64,000 nt of DNA from Minisyncoccota bacterium (lineage in GTDB: Bacteria > Patescibacteriota > Minisyncoccia > Phycocordibacterales > JACRKE01), in contig JBAZWG010000001.1 of the NCBI GenBank assembly GCA_041660505.1, positions 541,776-605,775 of the forward strand. The letters run 5' to 3'. The notes under the pieces are model-generated. The model was not told the origin of the DNA, made no database searches, and saw only the letters and a list, made by a program, of their open reading frames with translations. Made by a program: the position numbers and the translations under genes. The number at the start of each line of letters is the position of its first letter. Positions within the stretch are counted from its first letter, which is position 1. Positions 536-61,057 of this stretch are shown in pieces.

Positions 536-1483
536 TTAGATTATAAGCGCAATCGCGATGATGTTGATAATGAATGAGGTGAACAAGAGGTCAGGCAGGC
601 GGAAGATACGGTACTTCGCCATTGTCGATTCGATAAAGGCGATACCGAAGCAGAAGGCGAGAACCTTAAGGATAAAGATTACTAGGGCCGGTATTACAGA
701 AAAGAGCGAGAGCGATGCGCTGATGCCCATCGGGAAGAAGAGGTTGGCACCAAGCGCGATGAAGATCAGATATTTGCCCCAGGCCGCCCACTCGATCAAG
801 GCCAGGCGCTTGCCGGAGTATTCCAGTATCATCGCCTCGTGGATCATAGTGAGTTCCAGGTGAGTCGCAGGATTGTCGAAGGGGAAGCGCTTGGTCTCGG
901 CCAAGAGCGAAATAATAAAGCTCATGAAGGCGAGAAGGAGCGGGGTCGAATGTAAGAACGGCAGTGCCGCTATGCGCGCCGAGATGCCGAAAAGGTTGGA
1001 GGTGCCGGCGATGAGAGCGAGCGAAAGTAACGAGAGGATGAGCCCGCCCTCCGTGAGTGATGCCACCATCATCTCGCGAGAAGAGCCGAAGCCGCCGAAG
1101 CCGGCGCCCGTGTCGATACCGGCCAAGGCCAAGAAGAACGTTGCCAAGGCAAGCAGATAAATAATAAGCAAGAAGTCGCTCGTCAGTATATTGGGGAAGG
1201 CGCTTGAGACGAGCGGGATGCCGGCGCCGATAACTATCATTACCGCAAATATAATATAAGGCGCCACTAGGAATATCCACGAGGCATCGTGGCTCACAAC
1301 TTCGTCTTTATGAAAGAGTTTCCACAGATCACGATAGGGCTGGAAGATAGAAGCACCTTCACGATTCTGGAAGAGGGCCTTAAATTTGCGAGTCATGCCG
1401 ATGACGAACGGTGCCATGACCGGTATGAGCAGGAGTTGCAGTATCCAAAAAATCAAGATATTTATATTGAAAGATAAAGTCAT
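536..1483 (-). CDS. HycD/NuoH-like membrane subunit of a group-4 hydrogenase-like (Ehr/Hyf-type) complex
   Basis: 315 aa polytopic membrane protein. Resembles respiratory complex I subunit 1 / formate hydrogenlyase subunit 4 in hydrophobic helix pattern and conserved charged residues. Lies in an operon with NuoL-like and NuoB-like genes. Confidence 0.7.
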   Translation of the reverse strand: MTLSFNINILIFWILQLLLIPVMAPFVIGMTRKFKALFQNREGASIFQPYRDLWKLFHKDEVVSHDASWIFLVAPYIIFAVMIVIGAGIPLVSSAFPNILTSDFLLIIYLLALATFFLALAGIDTGAGFGGFGSSREMMVASLTEGGLILSLLSLALIAGTSNLFGISARIAALPFLHSTPLLLAFMSFIISLLAETKRFPFDNPATHLELTMIHEAMILEYSGKRLALIEWAAWGKYLIFIALGANLFFPMGISASLSLFSVIPALVIFILKVLAFCFGIAFIESTMAKYRIFRLPDLLFTSFIINIIAIALII

Positions 1484-1489
1484 GATATT

Positions 1490-3538
1490 TTAATGCGCAA
1501 GAATTACGAGCAGTGCTATTAGTGTTATCAGCATGTAAACAATATAGAGGTTGGTGTTGCCGGACTGAATGCGCTTGAACTGGTTGGAAAGTCTCGTGAT
1601 AAAAGATTGAACTGGCGCGTAGAAGTTGTCGAGATAAATATCTTTGAGCTCGAGATGAACGACGCTTTTCTTCGGGAAGTAGCGGAGCTCCGCATCGTGA
1701 TACTCGATGTGTGTCTGGCGTGTCGGGCGGAGCAGACCTTTAAAGATAACGATGAGCGAGCGTGAGAATCCGGTCGCGGTTATCTCCATGCGAGGCAAGA
1801 GTTCCGTCCCGCAGTCCCAAGTGCGATCGCGTCTTAACTTTCGATTTTTTGTTACTAACCCGACAATGATTCCGATGAGTGCGAGCGCAATTACCAGCCC
1901 GACGAAGAGAAGCCCTAGCGACATATTGGCAAAGTTATTGGAAAGATGAACGGCGCTCACGCTAGGCAGAACATTTAGTGTTTCTGCCGACATACCCATG
2001 TTCTGGAGCGCTTGTGCCAAGACAGTAAGGATACCGGTTACCTTGCCGGCAAATACACCGAAGATGAGCGTAAGGGTGGCGAGGAAATACATTCCGACAA
2101 GAAGCGGAGCGGAAGATTCATGAGCATGCTTGGCCTCATCACTGCGAGGGCGAGCGAGGAAGGTGATGCCGAAGGCTTTGACGAAGCAAGCGGCGGCGAG
2201 ACCGGAGGTGAAGGCCAAAGCGCCGATAGCGAGCACGAATATCATTCCCATTGTCGAGCCGAGCGAAGACACTGCGCTGAACATCGCTTGGAAGGTGAGC
2301 CATTCGGAGGCGAAGCCGTTAAGAGGAGGCAAGGCGCTAATGGCCATTGCGCCAATGAGGAAGAGGAAGGCCGTCTGGGGCATATATCGGATGAGCCCGC
2401 CGTACTTCTCGATATTGCGCGTATGTGTTGCGTGGATGACTGAGCCGGCGCCGAGGAAGAGCAGGCCCTTGAACACCGCATGGTTCATAGTGTGGAAGAG
2501 GGCGGCGATGAGGCCGATAAGAGCCAGCGCCTTCATTCCGAAAGAGAGGAATACAAGCGAACTGCCGAGGCCGAGCATGATGATGCCGATGTTCTCGATA
2601 GAGTGATAGGCGAGCAAGCGCTTAAGATCATGTTCGGACAATGCATACAAAACGCCAAGCAAGGCCGAGATCGCACCGAGTATAAGAATCGTGACACCCC
2701 ACCAGACTTGCGCCGGGCCGAGCAAGTCGAAGAAGATGCGGATGAACATATAGATACCGGTCTTAATCATGACGCCGGACATGAGGGCCGAGACGTGCGA
2801 GGGTGCGGCCGGGTGCGCTGAAGGGAGCCAGATATGGAAGGGGATGATACCGGCTTTGGTGCCGAAGCCGATGAGGGCGAGGACGAATATCATATTCTGG
2901 ATCCAGAGCGGTGCCGTCATGAGCGAGAGTTTGATAGTTCCGAAATCCAACGAACCGGTTACCTTGAACATAAGGAGAAAGGCGAGCGTGATGAACGCGG
3001 TGCCCACGTGCGTCATGACGAAGTAGAGCGTACCGGCCTTGATGTTAGCCTGCTCATGGCGCTCGTAAATTACGAGGAAGTATGAGGCGACCGACATTAC
3101 TTCCCAAGCGATAAGGAAGAAAAGAATGTTAGATGATGTAACAACTAAGAGCATTCCGAGTATAAAGCTATTGTAGAAAAAACCGAGCGTCCCCAGATTA
3201 TATTTGCCGATATATTGCTTGGCATACCCATAGCCGTAGACAGATGCGGCGAGCGCAATGAGCGAAATGACGAAGACGAAAAACACCGATAAATGGTCGA
3301 GCGTAAAGGAGAATGTAAGTGCGGGAAAGGTTGAATATCCGGCGAACGAGAAGCCAATGCCTTGCATAAGTAATGAGAGCGAGAAGACAAGAGTCGATAG
3401 TGAGCCGACGATAGAAAATATCGATGACCAAGCATGTGCCGCCTCGTCGTCGTAGCGGAAGATAAGAGAGCCGATAGCGCCGATAGTAAAAAGGCCGAGA
3501 ATAGTGGGGAAGAGTTGTTGGAGGTAAACGGCGGACAT
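1490..3538 (-). CDS. HyfB/HycC/NuoL-like antiporter-type membrane subunit (Mrp/complex I family)
   Basis: 682 aa, about 16 TM helices. Central region ...WLPSAHPAAPSHVSALMSGVMIKTGIY... is typical of the NuoL/MnhA/HyfB proton-pumping family. Start is 3 bp from the stop of the NuoB-like gene. Confidence 0.8.
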   Translation of the reverse strand: MSAVYLQQLFPTILGLFTIGAIGSLIFRYDDEAAHAWSSIFSIVGSLSTLVFSLSLLMQGIGFSFAGYSTFPALTFSFTLDHLSVFFVFVISLIALAASVYGYGYAKQYIGKYNLGTLGFFYNSFILGMLLVVTSSNILFFLIAWEVMSVASYFLVIYERHEQANIKAGTLYFVMTHVGTAFITLAFLLMFKVTGSLDFGTIKLSLMTAPLWIQNMIFVLALIGFGTKAGIIPFHIWLPSAHPAAPSHVSALMSGVMIKTGIYMFIRIFFDLLGPAQVWWGVTILILGAISALLGVLYALSEHDLKRLLAYHSIENIGIIMLGLGSSLVFLSFGMKALALIGLIAALFHTMNHAVFKGLLFLGAGSVIHATHTRNIEKYGGLIRYMPQTAFLFLIGAMAISALPPLNGFASEWLTFQAMFSAVSSLGSTMGMIFVLAIGALAFTSGLAAACFVKAFGITFLARPRSDEAKHAHESSAPLLVGMYFLATLTLIFGVFAGKVTGILTVLAQALQNMGMSAETLNVLPSVSAVHLSNNFANMSLGLLFVGLVIALALIGIIVGLVTKNRKLRRDRTWDCGTELLPRMEITATGFSRSLIVIFKGLLRPTRQTHIEYHDAELRYFPKKSVVHLELKDIYLDNFYAPVQSFITRLSNQFKRIQSGNTNLYIVYMLITLIALLVILAH

Positions 3539-3540
3539 AA

Positions 3541-4101
3541 TTATTTTGACTTAGAAGGTTCAACTTTAGGCACCTTAAAGGTTGAACCTTCTAAGTCGCC
3601 CAAAATTTGAAGCAGTGCCGTCATGATAGTCATGGGTGATGGCGGGTCGCCCGGGATTTCATAATCTACCGGTATGGCACCGCGCGCACCGTCGAGTACG
3701 GCGTAGGAGCCTTTGAATATTCCGCCATTAATAGCGTCATCGCCGACCGCGACAACAATCTTCGGAGTCGGTGTTGCTTCATAAGAATGCATAAGCCCGT
3801 CATACATATTGCGAGAGACCGGGCCTGTCACCATCAGCATATCGGCATGGCGCGGGGAGGCGACGAAGTGAATGCCGAAACGTTCAACGTCATAATAAGG
3901 ATTGCCCAGAGCCACGAGCTCCTGCTCCTCTGCGTTGGTCCCGCCGGCGGTCACGACGCGGATGGCCAAGGAGCCATTAAAGATTTTTTTGACCTTAGCG
4001 CTTAGTTCCGCGCCGGCAGTGTGATATTCAGGAGGTAAGCCCATATCAACCGATTCTATCAGTCTGGGGGTTTTTATGATTTTGGAAATTAAATTAAGCA
4101 T
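3541..4101 (-). CDS. NuoB-like hydrogenase small-subunit homologue lacking all Fe-S ligating cysteines (Ehr-type)
   Basis: 186 aa with NuoB/Oxidored_q6-like spacing (..RHADMLMVTGPVS.., ..AVGDDAINGG.., ..IPGDPPSP..). The protein contains zero Cys. The canonical CCxxE, GxCxxxGG and GCPP positions read GG, D and D. The last ~18 codons overlap a palindromic repeat (copy A1). Confidence 0.7.
   Translation of the reverse strand: MLNLISKIIKTPRLIESVDMGLPPEYHTAGAELSAKVKKIFNGSLAIRVVTAGGTNAEEQELVALGNPYYDVERFGIHFVASPRHADMLMVTGPVSRNMYDGLMHSYEATPTPKIVVAVGDDAINGGIFKGSYAVLDGARGAIPVDYEIPGDPPSPMTIMTALLQILGDLEGSTFKVPKVEPSKSK
3548..3597. repeat. REPIN-like palindromic doublet, family A copy A1 (inside 3' coding end of NuoB-like gene)
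   Basis: gacttagaaggttcaac / 16-nt loop / gttgaaccttctaagtc forms a perfect 17-bp inverted repeat built on the AAGGTTCAACCTT / AAGGTTGAACCTT motif. Confidence 0.75.
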
Positions 4102-4290
4102 GACTACAACAAAGCGTTATCCTACCCCAAACCTATATTTTTTTCAATAGTCTGGTATAATCGTAAACGTGAAATATGCATGGTTAATTCTGGTTATAAT
4201 TGTGGCGCTATTCGCTTTCGGCTTCTGGGTCGCGAGTAAAAGCGGCAGCCGCTTGGCGCCAGACCCGATAAATAACATTGCTGTTATCGG

Positions 4291-4319
4291 TTGACATTCT
4301 GGCCACATCGCGGTACTAT
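4291..4319 (+). promoter_or_regulatory. Sigma-70-like promoter candidate upstream of secE (TTGACA-17nt-TACTAT)
   Basis: TTGACA at 4291..4296, then a 17-nt spacer, then TACTAT at 4314..4319. Confidence 0.4.
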
Positions 4320-4333
4320 ACGGGTACTAAATG

Positions 4334-4352
4334 CCCCGCGGGGCTTTTTTAA
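4334..4352 (+). terminator. GC hairpin CCCCGCGGGG followed by T-run, between the promoter candidate and secE (terminator or leader attenuator)
   Basis: Perfect 10-nt palindrome ccccgcgggg at 4334..4343 followed by cttttttaaaa. It lies about 25 nt upstream of the secE ATG. Confidence 0.35.
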
Positions 4353-4378
4353 AATAAACTATAATTTAGACTATATTT

Positions 4379-4567
4379 ATGAGTAAAGCAGGAGATTATC
4401 TTAAGGACACAGCCGCCGAGATGAAGCATGTGAGCTGGCCGACCCAGTCGCAGTCGATTAACTACACGCTTCTCGTTATTGGCATTTCTGTTTTCGTCGC
4501 ACTCTTCCTCTACGCTTTCGACGAGGTCTTCGTTGTGCTCTTACAGAAATTTATTTTGAAGATCTAA
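4379..4567 (+). CDS. secE: Preprotein translocase subunit SecE
   Basis: 62 aa with a single C-terminal TM helix. Conserved position directly upstream of nusG. Confidence 0.85.
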   Translation: MSKAGDYLKDTAAEMKHVSWPTQSQSINYTLLVIGISVFVALFLYAFDEVFVVLLQKFILKI

Positions 4568-4571
4568 AACC

Positions 4572-5117
4572 ATGGCCAAACAAGAATTACAAGTTGGTCG
4601 CAATTGGTACGCTATCCATACCTACTCCGGGTATGAGAATGCCGTCGTGCGCAACTTGAAACAACGCATTGAGTCGCTCGGAATGGAGAATTTGATTTTC
4701 AACGTATTGGTTCCTAAAGAAAAGAAAGTAAAAGTTCGTGGCGGCAAGCGCGTGGAGTATGAAGACAAGATTTATCCCGGATACGTTTTAGTAGACATGA
4801 TCGTGACGGATGCGTCATGGTATGTAGTCCGCAATACGCCCCGCGTGACCGGCTTCGTCGGCTCGGGCGTCAATCCTATACCTTTGGACAAGAAAGAGGT
4901 TGATGAGCTCTTCCGCCGAATGGGCGAGACGTCTGTCAAACACTCCATCGAGCTCGATGTTGGTGAGACCGTGCGTATTAACGACGGACCGTTCAAAGAC
5001 TTCGAAGGCAAGGTGAGCGAGAAGGATGAGGCCAGGGGCAAGGTCAAGGTGCTCGTCTCGATGTTTGGTCGCGAGACACCCGTGGAGTTAGATTTTCTCC
5101 AAGTAGCGAAGATTTAA
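4572..5117 (+). CDS. nusG: Transcription termination/antitermination factor NusG
   Basis: 181 aa. N-terminal NGN domain (WYAIHTYSGYEN) and C-terminal KOW motif (GETVRINDGPFKDFEGKV). Confidence 0.9.
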   Translation: MAKQELQVGRNWYAIHTYSGYENAVVRNLKQRIESLGMENLIFNVLVPKEKKVKVRGGKRVEYEDKIYPGYVLVDMIVTDASWYVVRNTPRVTGFVGSGVNPIPLDKKEVDELFRRMGETSVKHSIELDVGETVRINDGPFKDFEGKVSEKDEARGKVKVLVSMFGRETPVELDFLQVAKI

Positions 5118-5213
5118 TTATTAACAGAATTTAAGAATTACAGAATTACAGAATAATAAAGCTTCTTTCTATAATTCCCAAATTCCTAAATTCTAAAATT
5201 CTGTTCAAATAAC

Positions 5214-5633
5214 ATGACAAAAGTAGTAAAAACAATTAAATTGCAAATCCCGGCCGGTAAGGCCACCCCGACGCCTCCGGTCGGTCCAGCGCTCGGCCAA
5301 GCCGGTGTTAACATCGGCGAGTTCATCACCAAGTTCAACGCCGCCACGGCCAAAATGGCGGGGGATATCATCCCTGTTATTATCTCGGTCAAGGATGACC
5401 GTTCCTTTAGTTTCGAGCTCAAGACTCCGCCGGCATCAAACCTCCTCCTCAAGGCCGCCGGTGCCGAGAAAGGCTCCGGTACGCCGAACACAAAGAAAGT
5501 CGGCAAGATAACGAAAGCCCAGCTCAAAGAAATTGCTGAGAAGAAGATGCCAGACTTGAATGCAAAAGACTTGGAAGGCGCCATGAACATCATTGCCGGC
5601 ACCGCCCGCAACATGGGAATTGATATCGTATAA
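5214..5633 (+). CDS. rplK: 50S ribosomal protein L11
   Basis: 139 aa. Motif [27 protein letters not shown] is diagnostic of L11. Confidence 0.95.
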
Positions 5634-5677
5634 GGTTTCAAAGGTTCAACCTTATGCATCCAAAAGGTTGAACCTTA
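5632..5677. repeat. REPIN-like palindromic doublet, family A copy A2
   Basis: aaggttcaacctt (5641..5653), 10-nt loop, aaggttgaacctt (5664..5676). The two halves are reverse complements of each other. Confidence 0.75.
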
Positions 5678-5689
5678 AAAAACAAAATT

Positions 5690-6292
5690 ATGTTTCTTTC
5701 AGATCGAGATATTAAAGCCGCAGTGAAGTCTGGCGCTATTCGTATCGATGATTTCGATCCAGAGCGGCTCCAGCCGGTCTCCTACGATATTCTCCTTGGC
5801 AACAAGTTCATCACCACCGAGTCGCAGGACACACCTTTTATCGACCCGGTAAAAAAGATTTTCCCCAGTACGCGCGAGATTACGATTGAGGACAACGAGA
5901 GTTATGTGCTCCATCCTGGCGTGAGTATCCTCGGTACTTCATTCGATTACTTCGGCTCGAAGGAATATCTCATTCAGCTCTCGGGCAAGAGTTCGCTCGC
6001 GCGCATTGGGCTCATTGTCCACAACACCGCGGGCATCATCAACCCGGGCCATTTCTTGCATATTACGCTCGAGTTATGCAATTTGAATGTCGTGCCAATC
6101 GTTCTCCGCCCCAAGATGCATATCGCGCAGTTACTATTCTCGAAAATTTCCAATCCTGTCATTCATGACTACAGCAAGACCGGCCGATACTTCGAGAAGA
6201 ATTGGCAAGGCATCACCCACGCCAAGAACCGGCGCGTGACCGATAAAAAAGTTAATAAAAAGAAGCATGTCAAATTTTCAGATGAAGGTTAA
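5690..6292 (+). CDS. dcd: dCTP deaminase
   Basis: 200 aa. MFLSDRDIK... N-terminus and the SSLARIGLIVHNTAGIINPGH region match the Dcd/dUTPase-like trimeric fold. Overlaps dut by 26 bp. Confidence 0.75.
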   Translation: MFLSDRDIKAAVKSGAIRIDDFDPERLQPVSYDILLGNKFITTESQDTPFIDPVKKIFPSTREITIEDNESYVLHPGVSILGTSFDYFGSKEYLIQLSGKSSLARIGLIVHNTAGIINPGHFLHITLELCNLNVVPIVLRPKMHIAQLLFSKISNPVIHDYSKTGRYFEKNWQGITHAKNRRVTDKKVNKKKHVKFSDEG

Positions 6293-6698
6293 GAGGCTCA
6301 ATCCTAAGGCGATACTGCCGGATTATAAGCACGATGGGGATGCCGGTCTCAATCTATATTCGATCGTTCGGGCCAAACTCGAGCCCGGTGCGCGCGCAAC
6401 AGTCCCGACAGGTATCGCAACAGAAATACCGGCAGGACATGTGGGCCTGATTTGGGACAGAAGCGGTCTGTCGCACAAATCGGGGCTTAAGGTTATGGGC
6501 GGGGTGATTGATGCGGGATACCGCGGTGAAATCGGCGTAGGGCTGGTAAACACTTCTCATGAAGCTTATACAATCGAAGCGGGAGACAAGATAGCTCAGA
6601 TGCTTATTCAAGAAGTCGAGCACGTTCTTATTTCAGAAGTCGCAGAACTTTCCGACACGTCTCGCGGTTCAGCCGGCTTCGGCAGTACGGGGCGCTGA
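6267..6698 (+). CDS. dut: dUTP diphosphatase (dUTPase)
   Basis: 143 aa. dUTPase motifs GLIWDRSGL, GVIDAGYRGE, and the C-terminal SRGSAGFGSTG. Confidence 0.9.
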   Translation: MSNFQMKVKRLNPKAILPDYKHDGDAGLNLYSIVRAKLEPGARATVPTGIATEIPAGHVGLIWDRSGLSHKSGLKVMGGVIDAGYRGEIGVGLVNTSHEAYTIEAGDKIAQMLIQEVEHVLISEVAELSDTSRGSAGFGSTGR

Positions 6699-7393: not shown

Positions 7394-8323
7394 TTATACT
7401 GCAATCGGGGCTTTGATCGGTGGGTGGGGGTCGTAGCCTATGACTTCGACATCTTCGAATTTGAAATCGAAGATGTCTTTGACGGCGGGATTAATTTTCA
7501 TCGTCGGGAGCTTGCGCGGTTCGCGGGAGAGTTGTTCTTCTACTTGGGCAAAATGATTTTTATAAATATGGACATCGCCAAAGGTGTGGATGAACTCGCC
7601 CGGCTGCAGTCCGGCCACTTGCGCCATCATCATGGTAAAGAGGGAATAGGACGCGACATTAAAGGGTACACCCAGAAAGACGTCGGCCGAGCGCTGGTAG
7701 AGCTGGCAAGAGAGTTTGCCGTTAATGACCATAAAATGAAAGAGCGTGTGACAAGGTGGTGGGGCAGAGTGGTGCGCCTTGACTAAGCTCTCGATCTCGC
7801 CGATGTTCCAGCCGGAGACAATGAGTCGGCGCGAAGTCGGGTCGTTCTTTATCAAATCCAAAACAAGTTTGACTTGATTGATGCTCCTGCCGTCCTTCGT
7901 CTCCCAGTTGACCCACTGCTTACCGTAGATTGGGCCAAGCTCGCCGTATTTCTTGGCAAACTCGTCATCATTCACTATTTTCTCAACGAACTCCGCCATA
8001 TGATTGGTCCAACTCTCTGAATAGCGCGGATATTTTTCTTCCAGATTATTTTTCTTCAAATAGTCGGCATAGGCCCATTCGTTCCAAATCTTCACGCCAT
8101 TCTTTGCGAGATACTGAATATTAGTGTCTCCCCGCAAGAACCAGAGAAGTTCGTAAATTATCGATTTTAAATAAACTTTCTTGGTCGTGAGCAGAGGGAA
8201 GCCGTCGGCCAAATTCACTCTATATTGATAACCGAAGAGGCTGCGTGTGCCGACGCCGGTGCGATCCGCCTTATCGGTACCATCATCGCGAATCTTCTTG
8301 AGCAAGTCTAAATATTGCCGCAT
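7394..8323 (-). CDS. thyA: Thymidylate synthase ThyA
   Basis: 309 aa. Active-site region [41 protein letters not shown]. Confidence 0.9.
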
Positions 8324-8331
8324 AAGATTTA

Positions 8332-8931
8332 TTATTTTGATAAGTTAATAACTTCTTTATGTATCTCTTCGACGCTTCGCTCGCCATCTATGAGATATAC
8401 ATTTGGGTACCACTCCGGCATCTTGGCGTATATCTCGCCGGCTTTGCGTAATTTCTCGGTTTTCTCGAAGAGTTCCAGCTCGCGCCCATTTTTTGTAATA
8501 CGTTGCAAACAGACTTCTGGTCGTGCGATAAAGATAAAAGTCAGATCAGGGATGGGGAATGGCTCGTTGATTTGTTTAAGCCATTCAACATCCAGATTAA
8601 GCGAACCGAAGGCGACGGTCGAAAATAAATAACGGTCAGAAACTACCGTTTTGCCGGCATCAAGCGCCGGAATAATAACTTGCTCTACGTGCCACTTGCG
8701 ATCTTTAACAAAGAGTTCTTGTAATTCTTTCGGCGTTAGAGATTTCTTGTGTTTCAACACATCGTCAATCTCATCAGAAAAAGGACTTTCGCCACGCGAT
8801 GTTGGCTCCTCTGTCTGCAGGACGTCGTGTCTGTGTTCGGTAAGATATTTAATAAAAAGTTCGATTTGGGCGCTCTTGCCGGAGCCGTCGAGACCCTCGA
8901 AGACGATAAATTTCCCTTTTCTTGCACTCAT
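8332..8931 (-). CDS. tmk: Thymidylate kinase
   Basis: 199 aa. P-loop [16 protein letters not shown] region present. Confidence 0.9.
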
Positions 8932-8954
8932 AATTTTGATTGTAACAGAAAGAT

Positions 8955-9479
8955 GTGATATCGTCTAAGCATATGATAGTCTCGCTCATCGTTGCAATGG
9001 ACAAGAACCGTGTTATCGGGCAGTCGGGGACTTTGCCCTGGAATATCCAGGCCGATATGAACTTCTTCAAGACTATCACGATGCATCACCCGGTCATCAT
9101 GGGGAGGAAGACCCACGAGTCCATCGGCCGAGCCTTGCCTCATCGCTTGAATATTATCGTAACGCGCCAAGCGGGCTATCAGCCTAAAGGGAAAGCGGGG
9201 GATTCTGTGATTGTGCCGAATTTGGAAGCCGCCTTCGATTGGGCGCTCAAGGTAGAGAAGCAGGAGATATTCGTCATCGGCGGGGCAGAAATTTTCGAAC
9301 AAGCAATGCCAGTCGCCGACAAAATTTATATCACAGAAATAGATTCAGAATTCAAAGGTGACACATTTTTTCCTGAGATTAGCTCGAAAGAATGGGAGCT
9401 AAAATCGTCATCAGCTCTAAATAACGAATCCACCGGCGGGCATACGCTCCACTTCAAGACTTACGAACGAAGAAAGTAA
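8955..9479 (+). CDS. folA: Dihydrofolate reductase
   Basis: 174 aa. Motifs IVAMDKNRVIGQSGTLPW and VIMGRKTHESIG, plus the GG motif VIGGAEIF. Confidence 0.85.
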   Translation: MISSKHMIVSLIVAMDKNRVIGQSGTLPWNIQADMNFFKTITMHHPVIMGRKTHESIGRALPHRLNIIVTRQAGYQPKGKAGDSVIVPNLEAAFDWALKVEKQEIFVIGGAEIFEQAMPVADKIYITEIDSEFKGDTFFPEISSKEWELKSSSALNNESTGGHTLHFKTYERRK

Positions 9480-9487
9480 GTTAAAAC

Positions 9488-9520
9488 AATCACAGACTGC
9501 CGGATGACAGTCTGTGATGA
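9488..9520. terminator. Bidirectional hairpin between folA (+) and the GC-rich minus-strand gene pair
   Basis: atcacagactg / ccggatga / cagtctgtgat gives a perfect 11-bp stem. On the minus strand it is followed by a T-rich run (ttgttttaa). Confidence 0.45.
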
Positions 9521-9545
9521 TGCTGGGGGGGGCGAATCAGCTACA

Positions 9546-9884
9546 TTACAGCCTGCGAAGGGCGCGGTTGAGGCTTTTCATTGCCTCGACGAGCTCTTTC
9601 GAGAGGCGGTACTCTTTTGCCGCCTGGTACTGCTTGATCGGGACATCCAGCGCCGTTGCGATGTCCTCGACCGTAGTCAAACCTTTCGCCTTGTGGGCGT
9701 ACCGAGTTGCTTCGAAGGCGATGTCCTCGCCGGCGACGCGGAGTTTGACGAGCTCGTCCCGGGCTGCGAGCATCTGCTTGAAGGTGCCGAGGTCGTTGTT
9801 CTTTGTCCCCGGCCCAGCAGCGCCGCTTTCGCAGGAGTACACGAAGTCCTTGACGGACTCCTTGAGAATCTTTGTGTCGAACAA
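9546..9884 (-). CDS. Hypothetical protein, paralogue 2 of a tandem pair in a high-GC island
   Basis: 112 aa. Shares the block ..LRVAGEDIAFEATRYAHKAKGL..EDIATAL..QYQAA..ELVEAMKSLNRAL with the upstream ORF. GC content is clearly higher than in surrounding genes. Confidence 0.5.
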   Translation of the reverse strand: MFDTKILKESVKDFVYSCESGAAGPGTKNNDLGTFKQMLAARDELVKLRVAGEDIAFEATRYAHKAKGLTTVEDIATALDVPIKQYQAAKEYRLSKELVEAMKSLNRALRRL

Positions 9885-10336: not shown

Positions 10337-13300
10337 ATGGAATCAACTAAATCTGACGTCGCCAAGCGCGAGGAAGAGATACTGCAGTTTTGGCAAGAGG
10401 ATAAAACCTTTGAAAAGTCTTTAAAGAAGAAGTCGCCTAAGGGTAACTACGTTTTTTACGATGGCCCGCCTTTTGCCACCGGCACACCGCACTATGGGCA
10501 TATTTTAGGAAGCACAGCTAAAGATGTTATCGGGCGGTATAAGACTATGCAAGGCTACCATGTGCCGAGGCGTTGGGGCTGGGATTGCCATGGTCTGCCT
10601 ATTGAGAATATCGTCGAGAAAGATTTGAAGATTTCCGGCCGTAAGGCTATTGAAGAATACGGTATTGAGAAATTTACGGAGTATGCTCGCAGTAAAGTAT
10701 TGACCTACGTGCACGAATGGAAGAAGACAATCGATCGTATCGGACGCTGGGTGGACTTCGACAATTCCTACAAGACGATGGATAACAGCTTTATCGAGTC
10801 TGTCTGGTGGGCCTTGGGCGAACTGAATAAAAAAGGTTTGATCTATGAAGGTGTTCGCGTCTTGGCGTACTGCCCGCGCTGTGAGACGCCGATTGCCAAC
10901 TCCGAGATCGCAATGGACAATAGTTATAAAGACATCACTGATATCTCTGTCTACGCAAAGTTTGAACTAAAGGATGAGCCAAAAACATATTTCTTAGCGT
11001 GGACAACAACACCGTGGACGTTGCCGGGCAACATCGCACTCGCGGTCAATCCGGAGGTGGCTTATGTAAAAATTAAGCACGAGGGACAGTATTTGATACT
11101 CGCGAAGGAACGTCTGGTGAATACGATGAAAGATAAGCCCTATGAATTAATCGAAGAGTTTGAGGGCAAAACTTTTATAGGGAAAAAATATACGCCACTG
11201 TTCGATTATTATACACACACAAAAGGCATTGCCGATAATGAGAAGTCGTGGACGGTGCGCGGGGCGGAATTTGTGACCACGACCGATGGCACAGGAATAG
11301 TACATATCGCGCCAGCCTTCGGCGAGGACGATATGAATATGGCGAAGGCAGAAGGTTTGCCCTGGATCATCCATGTGACGCCGACCGGTAAATTTACCGA
11401 CGAGGTCACTCATTTTGCGGGCCAGCAAGTAAAACCCAAAGAGAATCATCAAGCCGCCGATGTCGAGATAATTAAGTATCTTGCGCATAATCATCTGCTG
11501 TTTGAAAAAGAAAAAATCATTCACTCTTACCCGCATTGCTATCGCTGTGAGACGCCTCTTTACTATTACGCGTTGCCGTCGTGGTTCGTTAATATCCAGA
11601 AAGAAAAATCTCACATTCTGAGTCGTGCTGAAGAGATGGCCTGGATACCTGCGCACCTGAAAGAGGGGAGGTTCAAGGGTGGCGTCGAGAGTGCGCCAGA
11701 TTGGACGATATCACGCAACCGTTACTGGGCATCGCCTTTGCCGATCTGGAAATCGAAGTCGGGAAAGGTTATGTTCGTAAACTCTCTCGAAGATTTAAAA
11801 AATAAGACAAAAAAGTCCGGGAATACGTACCACGTGATGCGCCACGGCGAGGCGGAAAATAATGTAAAAAAAATAGTCAGTTACGCTGACCAGAAAAATT
11901 CGCACCTCACGCCTAAGGGTAAAGAAGAGACTATGAGTACAGCAAAGACTGTTGCCGTAAATAAAATTACAAAAATCTTTTGTTCACCATTCACACGTAC
12001 GCTCGAGACTGCTTACATCGTGGCAGACGAGCTAGGAATTTCGCGAGACAACATCGTCACCGATGTTCGTCTCTGGGAACTAAACGCAGGGACATTCGAC
12101 GGTAAAAAATGGGCAGAGTGGGAAGTGTGGGCAAAATCACAGGAAAATTATTATAACGCAAGACCCGAAGGTGGCGAGAGCCATTTCGACGCTAAGAAAC
12201 GTTTCGGAGATTTTATCTACGATATCGATAGCCAGTTTCATAATGAAAGTATTCTTGTTGTAACGCACGGCATTGGGCTCGAGGTACTACCGGCAGTCGT
12301 CGAATGCGCCGACGGTGTGCGGTCTAAGCAGATTTACGAAAACACAAGTGAAAAAACAGGGGCAATGATTGAATTAGAATTCACTCCGCTTCCGCACACT
12401 GCCAACTATGAGCTTGATTTTCACCGGCCTTATATTGATGCGATAAAATTGGTTGATGAAGCAGGGGAAGAGTACACAAGAATTACAGAAGTCATTGACT
12501 GTTGGTTCGAGTCCGGCTCGATGCCATTCGCGCAAGACCATTATCCATTCGAACGCAAGAATTGGCAGAAAGAGAATTTTCCCGCAGGGTTCGTGGCAGA
12601 ATATATCGCCCAGACACGCACATGGTTCTATTATACGCACGCGCTTTCTACTATCTTCTTCGACCACGCACCATTCCAGAATGTCATCACGACCGGTAAT
12701 ATTTTGGCCGAGGATGGCCAGAAGATGAGTAAGTCGAAAGGGAACTTTCCTGATCCGGCTCTGCTCTTCGACAAATACAGTGTCGACGCATTGCGCCTCT
12801 ACTTGATGTCCAGCACGCTCATGAAGGGCGAGGATATGAACTTCTTCGAAAAAGGCGTAGATGAAGTAAATAAAAAGGTGATAATGCGCCTCGGTAATGT
12901 GTTGTCTTTTTATAAACTGTATTCTGACTTTAGCTCTAACTCCCAACTCCTAACTCCCAACTCCTCCCATGTGTTAGATCAATGGATGTTTTCTAGACTT
13001 GGTCAGCTTGTGACAGAAGTTACCACGTATATGGAATTATACGAGCTTGATAAGGCGACGCGACCACTCTTCGACTTCGTTGATGATTTATCGACATGGT
13101 ATCTGCGCCGTTCGCGCGACAGGTTTAAATCCGATGATGTTGAAGATAGGGAGGCCGCATTGCAAACTACTCGCTACGTATTAGAAACTACGGCAAAACT
13201 TGTCGCGCCACTTATGCCGTTCATCGCAGAATATATATATAAAGAGTTAGGGAACAGTGAGAGTGTGCACCTCGCCGATTGGCCAGGAATGGGAGATGGG

Positions 13301-13768
13301 AGTTTGGAGATAGGAGATAGGGTAATTCAAGATATGGTTCTGGTGCGGAAAGTAGCTTCACTTGGTCTCGAAGCGCGAGCAAAAGAAAAGATTGCGGTCC
13401 GTCAGCCATTAGCGAAGCTCGAGTTGAAAGATGCGACACTTGAGGGGAAGACGGAATTACTCGAACTGATTAAAGATGAAGTCAATGTAAAACAGATCTT
13501 GTTCAATAAAGAGCTGGAATCGGAAGTGAAGCTCGACACCGTGCTTACCGATGAGCTCAAACAGGAAGGCGAACTCCGCGAGCTGATGCGCGCTGTCCAA
13601 GATTTGCGAAAAACTAAAGGGCTTGAGCCGGGGCAAGTAATACGCCTGACTTTGTCAAAATCATATGAAACTCTCGCAAAAAAGTTCGAGACCGAACTCA
13701 AGAAAGGCGTTCGGGCAGAAAAGATAGTTGTGGCTGAAACGGCAGAAATGTCGCTCGAAGTAGTCTAG
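10337..13768 (+). CDS. ileS: Isoleucyl-tRNA synthetase with an inserted histidine-phosphatase (PGAM-like) domain
   Basis: 1143 aa. HIGH motif PHYGHIL, KMSKS motif QKMSKSKGN, editing-domain motifs and CYRCETPL all present. An inserted ~195 aa region (nt ~11819..12407) carries RHGEAENN, LTPKG, SPFTRTLETA, ELNAGTFDG and VVTHG, the hallmarks of histidine phosphatases. Confidence 0.9.
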   Translation: MESTKSDVAKREEEILQFWQEDKTFEKSLKKKSPKGNYVFYDGPPFATGTPHYGHILGSTAKDVIGRYKTMQGYHVPRRWGWDCHGLPIENIVEKDLKISGRKAIEEYGIEKFTEYARSKVLTYVHEWKKTIDRIGRWVDFDNSYKTMDNSFIESVWWALGELNKKGLIYEGVRVLAYCPRCETPIANSEIAMDNSYKDITDISVYAKFELKDEPKTYFLAWTTTPWTLPGNIALAVNPEVAYVKIKHEGQYLILAKERLVNTMKDKPYELIEEFEGKTFIGKKYTPLFDYYTHTKGIADNEKSWTVRGAEFVTTTDGTGIVHIAPAFGEDDMNMAKAEGLPWIIHVTPTGKFTDEVTHFAGQQVKPKENHQAADVEIIKYLAHNHLLFEKEKIIHSYPHCYRCETPLYYYALPSWFVNIQKEKSHILSRAEEMAWIPAHLKEGRFKGGVESAPDWTISRNRYWASPLPIWKSKSGKVMFVNSLEDLKNKTKKSGNTYHVMRHGEAENNVKKIVSYADQKNSHLTPKGKEETMSTAKTVAVNKITKIFCSPFTRTLETAYIVADELGISRDNIVTDVRLWELNAGTFDGKKWAEWEVWAKSQENYYNARPEGGESHFDAKKRFGDFIYDIDSQFHNESILVVTHGIGLEVLPAVVECADGVRSKQIYENTSEKTGAMIELEFTPLPHTANYELDFHRPYIDAIKLVDEAGEEYTRITEVIDCWFESGSMPFAQDHYPFERKNWQKENFPAGFVAEYIAQTRTWFYYTHALSTIFFDHAPFQNVITTGNILAEDGQKMSKSKGNFPDPALLFDKYSVDALRLYLMSSTLMKGEDMNFFEKGVDEVNKKVIMRLGNVLSFYKLYSDFSSNSQLLTPNSSHVLDQWMFSRLGQLVTEVTTYMELYELDKATRPLFDFVDDLSTWYLRRSRDRFKSDDVEDREAALQTTRYVLETTAKLVAPLMPFIAEYIYKELGNSESVHLADWPGMGDGSLEIGDRVIQDMVLVRKVASLGLEARAKEKIAVRQPLAKLELKDATLEGKTELLELIKDEVNVKQILFNKELESEVKLDTVLTDELKQEGELRELMRAVQDLRKTKGLEPGQVIRLTLSKSYETLAKKFETELKKGVRAEKIVVAETAEMSLEVV

Positions 13769-16288: not shown

Positions 16289-16314
16289 TCTAACAGAATT
16301 AAAGAATTTAGGAA

Positions 16315-28644: not shown

Positions 28645-28652
28645 ACGCCCAG

Positions 28653-28688
28653 AGGTTCGACCTTAAGCACCAAAAAGGTCGAACCTCA
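28653..28688. repeat. REPIN-like palindromic doublet, family A copy A3 (variant GGTTCGACC)
   Basis: gaggttcgacctt / 10 nt / aaggtcgaacctc. Located between the membrane-protein gene and the recA 3' end. Confidence 0.7.
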
Positions 28689-33396: not shown

Positions 33397-33444
33397 AAAC
33401 ACAAGGCAGTCTTCTGTGAGCCCCAGAAGACTGCCTTGTGTTTG
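33397..33444 (+). terminator. Long perfect hairpin downstream of 32611..33390
   Basis: aaacacaaggcagtcttctg / tgagcccc / agaagactgccttgtgtttg, a 20-bp perfect stem. No canonical U-run follows. Confidence 0.45.
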
Positions 33445-37606: not shown

Positions 37607-37689
37607 TCTTAAATTCTTACCCCTTGCTTGTGACTTGGGATAAGACTTCAAATATCGATTCACAGGTCTAGAACCTAGTGATAGATACC

Positions 37690-37727
37690 AAAACCCCCTC
37701 CGACGGAATGTCGGAGGGGGTTTTGTG
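37690..37727 (+). terminator. Rho-independent terminator after the giant surface-protein gene
   Basis: aaaaccccctccgac-ggaat-gtcggagggggtttt gives a 15-bp stem, then ttttgtgttt. Confidence 0.6.
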
Positions 37728-37730
37728 TTT

Positions 37731-37822
37731 GGCCCCACCCCTGCCCCTCCCCGAAGGAGAGGGGGAAACCGAAATCTGAATTTTCTTCCCTCTCCTTCGG
37801 GGAGGGAATGAGGGAGGGGCTA
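37731..37822. repeat. GC-rich palindromic element, family G copy G2
   Basis: ggccccacccctgcccctccccgaaggagaggggg ... ccctctccttcggggagggaatgagggagggg. Confidence 0.7.
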
Positions 37823-37960
37823 ATCCCAAGAGTTAACAACACACTTATCCACACATTACAATTAGATATCTTGGCAAAACAAGAGTACAATGGAACTGCA
37901 TTCGCGAATAAAAAGTTTCGCGGGCGTTATATTAGCAATTTAGTAATTAATTAGAAAATT

Positions 37961-46713: not shown

Positions 46714-47555
46714 GTACTCCATCCAGATATGCAAAAAATCCTCAACAAAAAACGCAGCGGTTAAGGAGATTCGCATCTGTGCGTACTCTTAAATCGCCAC
46801 AAGCGATTTTTTTTGTCCCAGAGGGACAATCCGCCGGTGAGGCGGGTGAGAGATTCATCAGAACGACCCGTAACTTGAAAATTTAATTCCATCGCATCAC
46901 TGGTGTTAACCAATTTTATTGGGGTCTACCATGATGAAGATGGGCAGGAAAAAGAAAGAAAAAAACAATTAAGCAAAGACGGTTTTCATATTTCCTAATA
47001 GGAAATATAAGAGCATATGGTGGATGCCTAGACTTTGAAAGGCGATGAAGGACGTAGCATGGCTGCGATAAGCTTCGGGGAGGTGCCTAGCAACCTTTGA
47101 TCCGGAGATGTCCGAATGGGGAAACCTTCATGACGATGAGTCATGAGACTCGTACTAATTCTACGAGATCGCACACCCTGGGAAGTGAAACATCTCAGTA
47201 CCAGGAGGAAAATAAACAAAATGTATTCGAATGTGGGATGTGGTGCGGTATAGTCCGCAGTACATCCTACATTCGTTGTATTCCCTAAGTAGCGGCGAGC
47301 GAAAAGGGAGAAGCCCAAACCGAATTTTTTCGCAAGAAAAACTTCGGTGTTATAAGGCAGTGATATAGAATTTATTCTAGTAGAGTTACAAAACAGCATA
47401 ATAATCGAATCGACTGGAAAGTCGAGCCACAGAAGGTAATGGCCCTGTAGATGAAATTATGTTGTCTCTAATTACTGTTCTTGAGTACCCCGGGACATGA
47501 TAAGCTTGGGGGAAGTCAGCGGCACTAACCGCTAAGGCTAAATACTTTCAAAGAT

Positions 47556-47594
<39 letters not shown>

Positions 47595-48309
47595 GCCCGG
47601 TGAGGGCGTTGAAATAAACCTGAAACCATATGTTTACAAGGAGTCGGAGCGGATGGCGCAAGCCATGCCGCGACGGCGTGCCTATTGAAGAATGAGCCAA
47701 CGAGTTTATATGTACTGCTAGGCTAATCGCGTTAACCCGCGAGGAGTCATAGGGAAACCAAGTGTTAATAGCGCGTCACCCTGTTTACAGGGGTGTAGTA
47801 CATGTAAGACCCGAAGCCAGAGCGAGCTTACCATGAGCAGGGTGAACCATCGAGAAATCGATGGGGAGGCCCGAACCCGTATGTCGTACAATGCATTGGG
47901 ATGACTTGTGGTAAGAAGTGAAAAGCTAATCGAGCCTGGTAATAGCTGGTTCTCTCCGAAATAGCTTTTGGGTTAGCGTCACGTGTTCCATGTGGGGGTA
48001 GAGCACTGGAAGGTCTCGACAGGTCGAAAGATCGCGAGACCTATCAAACTCCGAATACCACATGCTAAAAGCGTGGCAGTTAGACTGCGGGGGCTAAGCT
48101 CCGTTGGTCAAAAGGGGAACAGCCCAGATCTCAATCTAAGGTCCCTAAATCTACGTTAAGTGCATCACAAGGAGGTGAAGTTTCGTTGACAATGAGGAGG
48201 TTGGCTTAGAAGCAGCCACCCTTGAAAGAAAGCGTAATAGCTCACTCATCGAGAGACTTCGCGCCGAAGATAATCGGGGCTCAAACGTAGTACCGAAGGT
48301 GAGGACTTG

Positions 48310-48388
48310 AGGACTTCATTTTTGCAAATTCAGAAGGTTCAACCTTTTGAATGCCTAAGGTTGAACCTTGGGGCAAAAATGAAGTCCT
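48310..48388. repeat. REPIN-like palindromic doublet, family A copy A4, at the tip of an extended 23S helix (H45 region)
   Basis: aggacttcatttttgc ... gaaggttcaacctt / ttgaatgcct / aaggttgaacctt ... gcaaaaatgaagtcct. The repeat doublet is enclosed by a further 16-bp inverted repeat. Confidence 0.65.
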
Positions 48389-49190
48389 TGAGTGGTAGGA
48401 GAGTTTTCGTGTCCGCAGTGAAGCCTAAGGGGTGACCCGTGGTGGAGCGACACGAAGTACGAATGTTGGCACAAGTAACCGCAATAGCGTTTAGAACACG
48501 CTACGCCGAAAGACTAAGGTTTCCTTCGCGATGTCAATCAGCGAAGGGTTAGTCGGTCCTAAGGGAATGACGAATGTCGGACCCGATGGAATACAGGTTA
48601 ATATTCCTGTACTTTTTTGTAGTCTGATGAAATGACGAAGTGTAGTATGCATGGCGCATTATGGATTTGTGTTTGCGCATCCGCCTTGATTCCCAGGAAA
48701 ATCCGGGAGTCTGTCTTTAATGACGACGGTGAAGGTGTGTGAAGATTCCGCGATTCGTCAAAGGAGATCATGCAAAGCGCGCTTCCAAGAAAAGTTTCTA
48801 AAGATAACTACAGAAAAACCGTACCGTAAACCGACACAGGTAGTCAGGTCGAGCAGACCAAGGCGAACGAGTGAGTGCATCCCAAGGAACTCGGCAAAAA
48901 AGCGGCCGTAACTTCGGAATAAGGCCTGCCCACGCAAGTGGGCTACAACAAAAGTTTCTCTGGCGACTGTTTATCAAAAACACAGCTCCCTGCGAACTCG
49001 TAAGAGGATGTATAGGGGGTGACGCCTGACCAATGCCAGAAGGTCAACCGGTGACCGTGTGCGCATCACACTGCGTGTGATGCAGTTTAAATATTTAAAT
49101 ATTTAAATTTGCATCGCGCTTGGCGCGATGCGTATGCTGTTCGTCGTAAGCCCTGGTGAATGTCGGCAATAACTATAATTGTCCTAAGGT

Positions 49191-50113: not shown

Positions 50114-50146
<33 letters not shown>

Positions 50147-50173
50147 AAGATACGCGAGCTGGGTTCAGACCGT

Positions 50174-52974: not shown

Positions 52975-53013
52975 GAGGTTCGACCTTTCAGATGTCCTAT
53001 AAGGTCGAACCTC
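52975..53013. repeat. REPIN-like palindromic doublet, family A copy A5
   Basis: gaggttcgacctt / tcagatgtcctat / aaggtcgaacctc. Lies immediately after the ftsW stop. Confidence 0.7.
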
Positions 53014-58700: not shown

Positions 58701-58779
58701 CCCTCGCCTTGCGGTTCTCGTCTCGCCAGGTGGCAGACGGGACCGCTTTGTTTTTAGCCTAATTTTGTTACACTACCAA

Positions 58780-58815
58780 TGTTGAACCTTGGGCATATAG
58801 AAGGTTAAACCTTCT
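58780..58815. repeat. REPIN-like palindromic doublet, family A copy A6 (degenerate)
   Basis: gttgaacctt / gggcatatag / aaggttaaaccttc, just upstream of folD. Confidence 0.55.
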
Positions 58816-59726: not shown

Positions 59727-59745
59727 TTGGAAGTTTCACTTCCAA
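59727..59745. repeat. Palindrome TTGGAAGT-N5-ACTTCCAA copy P1 (upstream of transposase gene; loop inverted relative to P2/P3)
   Basis: ttggaagtttcacttccaa. Two more copies sit inside the downstream gene at 59945..59963 and 60236..60254. Confidence 0.7.
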
Positions 59746-59763: not shown

Positions 59764-60450
59764 ATGCACATAAATTTAGAGTTTGCCGAGGAAGAGTACT
59801 ACCATGTTTACAATAGGGGCGTAGAAAAACGCAGTATTGTGGTCGATGAAAAAGATTCCGCCCGATTTATACAAAGTTTGATCCAGTTCAATTCGCTCAA
59901 GCCGATAGGGAGTATTTTCGAAAACACTTACGAATACAAGAAAATTGGAAGTGAAACATCCAAAGAACTAACAAAGAAGAATGAAGCCCTTGTAGAAATT
60001 ATCGCATATTGCTTAAATCCCAATCATTTTCACATGATACTTTCACCAGTTGTTGAAGATGGTATTAGTAAGTTCATGCATCGTCTGGGAACCGGTTATA
60101 CGAAATATTTTAATAAGAGGCACAAACGCTCCGGGTCGCTTTTTCAGGGATTGTTTAAAGCGAAACACCTGGAAGATAACGACTATTTACTCCATGTGAG
60201 CGCCTATGTAAACCTAAACGACCGCGTGCATAAAATTGGAAGTGAAACTTCCAAAGTTTCAAAATTGGTGCGGAAGAGTTACGGGGAGTATGAAGCGGGG
60301 AGTGGCGGATTCTGCCAGAAAGATGTTATACTTGATCAGTTTAAGAATAGAAAAGAGTATACGGATTTCTGTGAAGATTCACTCGAACTTATGCACGAGA
60401 CAAAAGACGAGCAAAATGAACTAAAAGATCTTAATTTATTAGAATACTAA
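59764..60450 (+). CDS. IS200/RAYT-like HUH tyrosine (Y1) transposase homologue carrying two in-frame palindrome insertions
   Basis: 228 aa from ATG 59764. The ORF-track N-terminal extension overlapping folD is rejected. COG1943-like blocks YYHVYNRGVEKRSIV.DE.D, the HUH motif NPNHFHMIL, GSLFQGLFKAKH, and DYLLHVSAYVNLN (candidate catalytic Tyr). A TATAAT lies at 59751..59756. Confidence 0.6.
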   Translation: MHINLEFAEEEYYHVYNRGVEKRSIVVDEKDSARFIQSLIQFNSLKPIGSIFENTYEYKKIGSETSKELTKKNEALVEIIAYCLNPNHFHMILSPVVEDGISKFMHRLGTGYTKYFNKRHKRSGSLFQGLFKAKHLEDNDYLLHVSAYVNLNDRVHKIGSETSKVSKLVRKSYGEYEAGSGGFCQKDVILDQFKNRKEYTDFCEDSLELMHETKDEQNELKDLNLLEY

Positions 60451-60454
60451 TTTC

Positions 60455-61057
60455 TTGGACATGAGATGTCCAAAAGTTATGAGAGTAGTAAAAGAAACAT
60501 CAACGACTATCCTTCTTAAGGATTACGAATTTATCCCGATGCTCATGGCTGTAATTATGTGTGCCTTGGCTATTTTTTTTGTCTGGTTTCTCTCTGTTCC
60601 CGGACAATTCAAGCGGCCAGAAATTTGGGCTTCTCTGTTGTTCGTGTCAGCGTATGCATTTGCATTAATATGGACAATAGAAATGTTAACTTTTGAATTC
60701 GATAAATCGCAGAACAAACTGATTATTATTAAGAAAAAAATTACAAAAAAAACGCAGAAATCGTATACAATCACTGATATAGAAAAAATCTGGACGAGCC
60801 AATACGAAGGACAACGCCGGAAAAAAGGCGACATGTGGAGTGTGTACCTGTTGTTAAAAAGTGGAAATAAAGTTCCTCTAACCCCTGGGTTGAGTACAAA
60901 TAGGGTACATCCGTTGTATAATCCCAAAATTCCTAAATATGTAGGACGTTTAGCAAAGTGGCTGCAAGTTCCCCTTGAAGAGGGTAAGGAACTCGGCGTG
61001 AAAGAGGCGCTTAATAAAAGCTACGATAGCTCTAGTCACTCGGAAGAAGAAGCATAA
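60455..61057 (+). CDS. Hypothetical membrane protein
   Basis: 200 aa. Two TM helices near the N-terminus, then a Lys-rich soluble domain. Confidence 0.45.
   Translation: MDMRCPKVMRVVKETSTTILLKDYEFIPMLMAVIMCALAIFFVWFLSVPGQFKRPEIWASLLFVSAYAFALIWTIEMLTFEFDKSQNKLIIIKKKITKKTQKSYTITDIEKIWTSQYEGQRRKKGDMWSVYLLLKSGNKVPLTPGLSTNRVHPLYNPKIPKYVGRLAKWLQVPLEEGKELGVKEALNKSYDSSSHSEEEA

Follow-up and report, generated by a model that had tools for sequence, protein, structure and literature searches.

A dispersed REPIN-like hairpin element of Patescibacteria, its residence in genes and rRNA, and its association with transposase-like Y1 genes

We analyzed a 64,000-nucleotide stretch of the genome of a Minisyncoccota bacterium (GenBank assembly GCA_041660505.1, contig JBAZWG010000001.1, positions 541,776 to 605,775 of the forward strand; hereafter the window), in which six inverted doublets of a 13-nt unit, AAGGT-YSR-ACCTT, are dispersed over intergenic spacers, a coding 3' end and the 23S rRNA gene (A1 to A6, Table 1). 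An earlier note on this DNA had compared these doublets to REPINs, which are inverted pairs of repetitive extragenic palindromes (REPs), and had linked them to a gene resembling the REP-associated tyrosine transposases (RAYTs). We think it likely that the six doublets are copies of a non-autonomous hairpin element of about 36-45 nt that belongs to Patescibacteria (also called CPR, for Candidate Phyla Radiation) and is probably mobilized by Y1 transposases. Loci from other genomes are referred to below by numbers beginning with L.

All six copies described in the earlier note were located in the window, and a paired-unit search returned these 6 doublets but none in any of 20 shuffled sequences. 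When the motif AAGGTTSAACCTT was searched with up to two mismatches, the window gave 13 matches against 1.5 expected, and 12 of the 13 make up the six pairs. The copies lie where they had been placed, except that A3 and A6 were off by 1-2 nt and that the range given for A4 takes in an outer 21-bp helix. As single-stranded DNA, A1 to A5 fold into hairpins of 13-20 bp (z between -6.5 and -8.4), whereas A6 carries three mismatches and favors two separate mini-hairpins over one long hairpin; the single architecture claimed for all six copies therefore holds for A1 to A5 and was slightly overstated for the degenerate A6. A3 and A5 share the same variant, GAGGTTCGACCTT...AAGGTCGAACCTC, in which both changes are compensated in the helix between the units, and the oriented loops of all six copies have a common GCA(Y) core. 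These counts and folds support a dispersed family of inverted, hairpin-forming mini-palindromes. A5 and A6 are identical in L205, a second independent assembly of the same organism. The window has five more single near-matches to AAGGTNNNACCTT, which are apparently due to chance; the one that was inspected, at 44209, has no extended palindrome.

The contexts of the copies were as the earlier note had stated them. A1 codes for the C-terminal 15-17 or so residues of a NuoB-like open reading frame (ORF; 3541-4101, minus strand), which ends in GSTFKVPKVEPSKSK before its stop codon, and is located 3 nt ahead of the next gene in the operon. A2 is found between the stop of rplK (5633) and the start of dcd (5690), A3 between a 112-aa ORF and recA, which are convergent, A5 10 nt past the ftsW stop, and A6 between glyA and folD, 10 nt ahead of folD. 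A4 forms the tip of a 67-nt insertion in a helix of the 23S rRNA (Rfam model positions ~1206-1226), at what we take to be the classical helix-45 site of intervening sequences (IVS). No family was reported at any copy by Rfam at gathering thresholds, and an exact look-up of RecA from the window gave no match. None of the six copies is followed by a T-run on either strand, A1 and A2 were not called by a terminator scan, and ordinary GC-rich terminators with T tails are present elsewhere in this genome; the orientation of the copies relative to transcription is mixed. The lack of T-runs, the result of the terminator scan and the public copies inside ORFs described below uphold the earlier view that these are not ordinary terminators.

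The earlier note had also proposed a pattern search beyond the window and a tabulation of spacers. We scanned one genome per GTDB species with the pattern AGGTTCRACCTT-N8-15-AAGGTYGAACCT and found the doublet in at least 120 stretches from at least 82 other genomes, nearly all labelled CPR/Patescibacteria and spread over many classes, where a hand estimate gives about 0.07 chance matches in 596 Gb; viral contigs gave no match to the pattern. The same 12-nt arms were found in genomes labelled as Saccharibacteria, Kaiser-, Moran-, Taylor-, Wolfe-, Yanofsky-, Nomura-, Levy- and Wildermuthbacteria, Paceibacterota and Minisyncoccia. The two positions left degenerate in the search pattern form Watson-Crick pairs (G-C or A-T) in 128 of 131 copies, and the outermost pair is complementary in 129 of them. 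Beyond the arms the consensus continues with Y-C-A before the unit and T-G-R after it, which lengthens the stem, and additional pairing tails off within about 7 nt. The loops, of 8-15 nt, are variable, and their normalised edit distance is smaller within genomes than between them (0.39 vs 0.55, p = 1e-13). Loops that are specific to a genome on a stem that stays constant fit the intragenomic proliferation of lineage-specific master copies under stem constraint. The element-selected loci hold 136 pairs with a TCR unit followed by a YGA unit and 5 with the opposite order; there are also 16 singlets, and several of these are extended self-palindromes.

Alternative identities for the repeat itself were set aside. 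A likeness to the tRNA T-arm (GGTTCGA) was dropped on account of the centre, which has 3-5 nt and not the 7 nt of a T-loop, and a sequencing adaptor or assembly artefact was rejected given the in-frame copies in conserved genes, the many independent studies from which copies come and the second assembly of A5 and A6. For several long extended hairpins (L049, L059, L086 and others) a location in rRNA was suspected, and Rfam did not place those copies there. Variant doublets also exist, such as AAGGTCAGACCTT...AAGGTCTGACCTT (L054 at ~1510-1550, relative positions 977-1013 downstream of its Y1 gene; L112 at 211 and 3831), as do nested copies with outer stems GAGGTTC...GAACCTC that resemble the core, and both suggest that there are related sub-families and that the element has inserted into itself.

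Just over half of the exact public copies (68 of 131, 52%) are found deep within ORFs that are 200 or more codons long. All three frames are in use (35, 23 and 10 copies), which led us to reject a conserved protein motif, and the encoded peptides read QGSTL...QGRTL, RFDL...RSNL or KVRP...KVEP. The CG-centred variant, which is stop-free in every frame, is enriched in ORFs (57 of the 68 copies inside them vs 31 of the other 63). We checked ten long host ORFs, namely those of IleRS, two LeuRS, ValRS, ArgRS, PheRS beta, two UvrA, a P-type ATPase and a surface protein, and in all except the surface protein (9 out of 10) the element is flanked on either side by Pfam domains. In the two UvrA orthologues (57% identical) the element occupies different sites, and each copy faces a clean 11-aa gap in the other protein; comparison at the codon level did not resolve target-site duplications or the exact ends of the element. 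A copy in IleRS is common to two Saccharibacteria (L011 and L105) and absent from the IleRS of the window. The closest relative recovered, L121 (L11 91% identical, ~71% nucleotide identity, syntenic with window positions 1190-6544), has unrelated sequence at the sites of both A1 and A2. We further assembled a control set of 80 loci from relatives (526 kb), picked by L11 and not by the element, and found no doublet in it. Because L121 lacks the element at these two sites, the control loci lack doublets, the IleRS copy is missing from the window and the UvrA copies differ in site, the copies are not orthologous conserved terminators, the possibility that the earlier note had named as its own counter-case. 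Residence in ORFs, the reciprocal gaps in UvrA and the absence of A1 and A2 from L121 show the behavior of an insertional element and not of a terminator, and we are highly confident that the doublet family is an insertional repeat. The absence from L121, the reciprocal gaps and the genome-specific loops likewise sustain the earlier description of an actively or recently mobile element, in the sense of insertion now or recently. As a separate observation, L121 has a different hairpin, AGTCCGTAC-ggtatatact-GTACGGACT, at positions 5424-5480, orthologous to window positions 5634-5689 and thus at the A2 site, so the rplK-dcd spacer bears a hairpin in both genomes, with unrelated sequences.

The link that the earlier note had drawn between the family and RAYT-like Y1 genes was borne out in other genomes. 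A tblastn search with the Y1 protein of the window found homologues in 8 of the 120 element-selected loci, which had been picked for carrying the element, whereas the 80 control loci had none. The Y1 gene of L009 has doublets directly at both of its ends, and that of L023 has one just upstream. In L040 and L032 a perfect doublet of 23-24 bp lies inside the Y1 ORF itself, at about residue 60, and L040 has in addition a single unit, TTCCGAAGGT-cga-ACCTTCGGAA, upstream of the gene. Further members of the clade of L040 and L032 (L206, L207/L208 and L209) hold an AAGGT doublet of 16-24 bp at nucleotides ~175-235 of the Y1 ORF. Within the AAGGT group, the Y1 proteins of L040, L032 and L045 are 53-70% identical, and element-encoded peptides were found in 23 of 120 Y1 proteins of the AAGGT-bearing clade vs 1 of 120 in the clade of the window's Y1 protein. 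If the internal doublet is the recognition hairpin of these Y1 genes, its placement would suggest self-recognition or autoregulation, neither of which is known from RAYTs or IS200 transposases. Two of the Y1 ORFs with an internal doublet contain an in-frame stop (TGA at nucleotide 288 in L040 and TAA at nucleotide 561 in L032) and may be pseudogenes. Near Y1 genes in two unrelated CPR loci we also observed genes for an RVT_1 reverse transcriptase and a bAvd/23S_rRNA_IVP-like protein (L203 at 16045-17452 and L207 at 7802-9818), a layout that resembles a diversity-generating retroelement.

The RAYT-like gene that the earlier note had placed at 59764-60450 is present as a Y1/HUH gene, with the HUH motif NHFHMIL and the tyrosine motif SAYVNLN. 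Its protein is identical to a database entry annotated as a transposase of Candidatus Paceibacterota (CPR) and encoded on a 719-kb contig, and JGI labels such CPR proteins 'REP element-mobilizing transposase RayT'; against the curated RAYT model NCBIfam NF047646 the window's protein scores 29 bits, below the cut-off of 80, and no sequence match to a solved structure in the PDB was found at E <= 1. That this gene is the RAYT that mobilizes the AAGGTT doublets of this genome, as had been proposed, we consider unlikely. No other Y1 gene is present in the window, this one appears intact, A6 is located ~950 bp upstream, and the gene belongs to the same broad protein family as the AAGGT-carrying Y1 genes (38-43% identity). 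Its own palindrome also has the same layout of a short stem, a 3-nt centre and GT/AC closing pairs. However, the four palindromes that bracket and interrupt the gene, one upstream, two internal and one downstream (Table 1), are all of the TTGGAAGT-nnn-ACTTCCAA type, the first internal one occupies the site that holds the AAGGT doublet in the other Y1 clade, and no AAGGTT unit touches the gene. The nearest homologues, L201 and L203, are paralogues on one 430-kb contig (58% identical) and repeat the four-site layout with the stems CTTGGAAAC and CTTGGAAGC; their 20-kb flanks contain neither dispersed copies of their own palindrome nor an AAGGT doublet. Across these three genes the outer stem CTTGG...CCAAG is conserved and three inner base pairs covary, which implies that the hairpin within the coding region is under selection. 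The grouping of Y1 proteins follows the type of palindrome, with those of the window, L201 and L203 56-58% identical and in a clade different from that of the AAGGT-bearing proteins. Since palindrome type follows the Y1 clade, a different Y1 paralogue would serve the AAGGT family, and it may lie elsewhere on the 719-kb source contig or may have been lost. We therefore regard the gene at 59764-60450 as probably not the cognate enzyme of the doublets.

Two further explanations leave Y1 enzymes out altogether. Under one of them, the repeat is a selfish palindromic element like the Rickettsia palindromic elements (RPEs), which spreads through recombination, repair or gene conversion at hairpins, and its proximity to Y1 genes reflects an insertion preference or coincidence. 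Its in-frame residence in essential genes and in rRNA does mirror RPEs, some Y1 genes with an internal doublet lie in doublet-poor flanks, and the UvrA comparison yielded neither a target-site duplication nor a clean end. Yet Y1 genes occur in element-selected and not in control loci, in 8 or more independent Y1 genes the copies directly flank the gene or occupy a single conserved position inside it, with single units upstream, and palindrome type follows Y1 clade, all of which make Y1-independent spread a rather improbable account. Least probable of all, and in our judgment very unlikely, is that the doublets are host functional signals and not mobile DNA, such as terminators, mRNA-stabilizing hairpins, RNase III sites or DNA-uptake sequences in inverted pairs. 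Four of the six window copies lie at gene ends, A4 sits in an rRNA helix where other bacteria have RNase III-processed intervening sequences, the stem sequence is conserved across lineages, and some Patescibacteria are naturally competent. Against such a role stand the lack of T-runs at all copies and of terminator calls at A1 and A2 in a genome with T-tailed GC-rich terminators elsewhere, the residence of half of the public copies in ORFs, in three frames and at non-homologous sites, the absence of the element from L121 and from 526 kb of related genomes, and the mixed orientation to transcription. The density in the window, ~1 per 10 kb, is also far below that of known uptake sequences.

We thus favor a hairpin element mobilized by a Y1 enzyme. 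Its basic unit would be the mini-palindrome AAGGT-YSR-ACCTT, with a stem of 5-6 bp and a 3-nt centre, as in a REP, and two inverted units (TCR first, then YGA) around a loop of 8-15 nt would form a REPIN-like hairpin of 13-20 bp. New copies would enter spacers between genes, the tips of helices that are already present (23S helix 45, for example) and, in-frame, the surface loops of proteins, and would then be inherited. The mobilizer is most likely a Y1/HUH transposase for single-strand DNA from the CPR 'RayT-like' family and would recognize the folded unit on single-stranded DNA as RAYTs do with REPs and IS200/IS605 TnpA with its end hairpins; a Y1 paralogue from the clade with the AAGGT doublet in its own ORF is probably the cognate enzyme. 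The data show the repetition, the structure, the compensatory changes, the insertion polymorphism, the in-frame copies in genes and the genomic association with Y1 genes; catalysis by Y1, the single-strand mechanism and the identity of the acting paralogue are points that we infer. Several observations weigh against mobilization by Y1. The same stem is found across very distant lineages, unlike REP-RAYT pairs, which are species-specific and diverge together. The only Y1 gene in the window carries a palindrome other than AAGGTT, and the 120 loci in which the Y1 association was counted had been chosen for the element. Three genomes with an internal-doublet Y1 gene have only one further doublet in ~60 kb of flanks, so that carrying an internal doublet does not alone mean dispersal. 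Finally, the Y1 proteins of L009 and L023 are only 33-43% identical to the AAGGT clade, and some of the adjacency may thus reflect insertion near the gene and not cognate recognition. A broader form of the Y1 hypothesis is possible, although we would put it at somewhat less than even: a superphylum-wide replicator of the REPIN type that keeps a 13-nt stem constant, writes loops of 11-14 residues into essential proteins, extends rRNA helices, and is partnered by Y1 genes with a covarying hairpin of their own at a fixed internal position.

The REP/REPIN-RAYT system, to which the earlier note had assigned the doublets, was defined in Pseudomonas and Enterobacteria (PMC3116915, PMC5581495), and a GTAG or CGTC tetranucleotide is conserved at the foot of the REP hairpin (PMC3733652). 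The label fits in several respects: the CPR unit is short, palindromic and over-represented, it occurs as singlets and mostly as inverted doublets that form one long hairpin, and at some loci its copies flank Y1/HUH genes, which look like divergent paralogues and not multi-copy insertion sequences (one in the 64-kb window; two at 58% identity on one 430-kb contig). JGI names the CPR proteins 'REP element-mobilizing transposase RayT'. The label does not fit in others, as the CPR element is not limited to extragenic sites (52% of public copies lie in ORFs, A1 is coding and A4 lies in 23S rRNA), its flank consensus has no GTAG or CGTC tag, its unit of 13 nt with a 3-nt centre is much shorter, its stem is common to many lineages and not species-specific, and it occupies a conserved site inside Y1 ORFs. 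In addition, the window's Y1 protein falls below the RAYT model cut-off and matches no solved structure by sequence.

Other known systems share individual traits. RPEs are a family of palindromic repeats of ~100-150 bp in Rickettsia, reportedly described by Ogata and colleagues in 2000 as inserted in-frame in protein-coding and RNA genes of a reduced genome. They resemble the CPR repeat in being palindromic and in residing in-frame in essential genes and in RNA genes, where short peptides are tolerated. The CPR element differs in being about three times shorter (36-45 nt), in having a candidate transposase gene and in spanning a superphylum and not one genus; we note no sequence relationship between the two, though no RPE sequences were compared. 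Like IS200/IS605 elements and their miniatures, CPR Y1/HUH genes have hairpins just upstream and downstream in the same orientation, most clearly the window's Y1 gene, L201 and L203. Unlike in IS200/IS605, the Y1 gene does not look multi-copy (the paralogues on one contig are 58% identical), the upstream and downstream hairpins have the same sequence, two more copies lie inside the ORF, and no tnpB gene is present. Intervening sequences in 23S helix 45 occur in Salmonella, Leptospira, Coxiella and others, and A4 is likewise an extra stem-loop at the tip of that helix, with the difference that here a copy of a repeat dispersed in the genome makes up the tip of the extension.

We found no report of such a hairpin/Y1 system in CPR bacteria in the literature searched, and Parcubacteria, Saccharibacteria and Microgenomates all go unnamed in a broad Y1 survey (PMC6006769). 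Our findings are best read as a REPIN-like system in a new superphylum that colonizes genes as RPEs do. REP/REPIN-RAYT systems have mainly been studied in Proteobacteria, and they are regarded as strictly extragenic, as inherited vertically and as specific to a lineage. CPR genomes are tiny and gene-dense, and there a comparable element resides largely within genes and rRNA; it could thereby recurrently generate those insertions in CPR proteins and rRNAs that have had no explanation. For annotation, segments of the type QGSTL...QGRTL, RFDL...RSNL or KVRP...KVEP in CPR proteins should be regarded as repeat-derived. If the link to Y1 is true, the system would provide a compact, testable pair of a hairpin and an HUH enzyme from organisms in which genetic manipulation is difficult, a natural insertion-polymorphism marker for strain tracking, and a transposase-like gene that embeds its own target in its reading frame.

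Table 1. Doublet copies, the Y1 gene and the palindromes of the Y1 gene in the window (positions in nt of the window).
Feature	Position	Strand	Unit starts	Spacer (nt)	Sequence, structure and remarks
A1	3548..3597, core 3555-3590		3555/3578	10	AAGGTTCAACTTT-aggcacctta-AAGGTTGAACCTT; stem up to 20 bp (GACTTAG...CTAAGTC); z -8.35
A2	5641..5676		5641/5664	10	Nominal locus of the earlier note; perfect 13-bp arms, loop atgcatccaa (10 nt); z -6.6
A3	28652..28687		28652/28675	10	Variant GAGGTTCGACCTT...AAGGTCGAACCTC, two compensated changes
A4	48305..48393, core 48334-48369	+	48334/48357	10	Nested in 21-bp outer helix; each unit an extended self-palindrome
A5	52975..53013		52975/53001	13	Variant as in A3, 13-nt loop
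A6	58778..58813		58778/58801	10	Degenerate, AATGTTGAACCTT-gggcatatag-AAGGTTAAACCTT; two mini-hairpins
Y1/HUH (RAYT-like) gene	59764..60450	+			228 aa; PF01797 35.8 bits (cut-off 23)
Palindrome, upstream	59727..59745				TTGGAAGT-ttc-ACTTCCAA; just upstream of Y1 ATG
Palindrome, first internal	59945..59963				TTGGAAGT-nnn-ACTTCCAA type; inside Y1 ORF, encodes IGSETSK
Palindrome, second internal	60236..60254				TTGGAAGT-nnn-ACTTCCAA type; encodes IGSETSK
Palindrome, downstream	60453..60475				Diverged, TCTTGGACAT-gag-ATGTCCAAAA; directly after Y1 stop codon

Some other features of the window were observed in passing. The 23S rRNA gene (46994-50976, 3.8 kb) contains, besides the helix-45 insertion, group I introns at 49184-49460 and 50275-50495 and is followed by 5S. 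Neither a 16S rRNA gene nor a tRNA gene was found in the 64 kb, from which it follows that the rRNA genes are unlinked. Other strong inverted repeats, unrelated to the AAGGTT family, are a C/G-rich pair (CCCCTGCCCCTCCCCGAAGGAGAGGG...) at 37689-37823, after a 1250-aa ORF, and a perfect 20-bp hairpin at 33397-33443, after an ORF that ends at 33390. The IleRS encoded at 10337-13768 contains an inserted His_Phos_1 (histidine-phosphatase) domain at residues ~500-651, and the same fusion is present in related CPR IleRS genes (L105, and L203 by precomputed Pfam).

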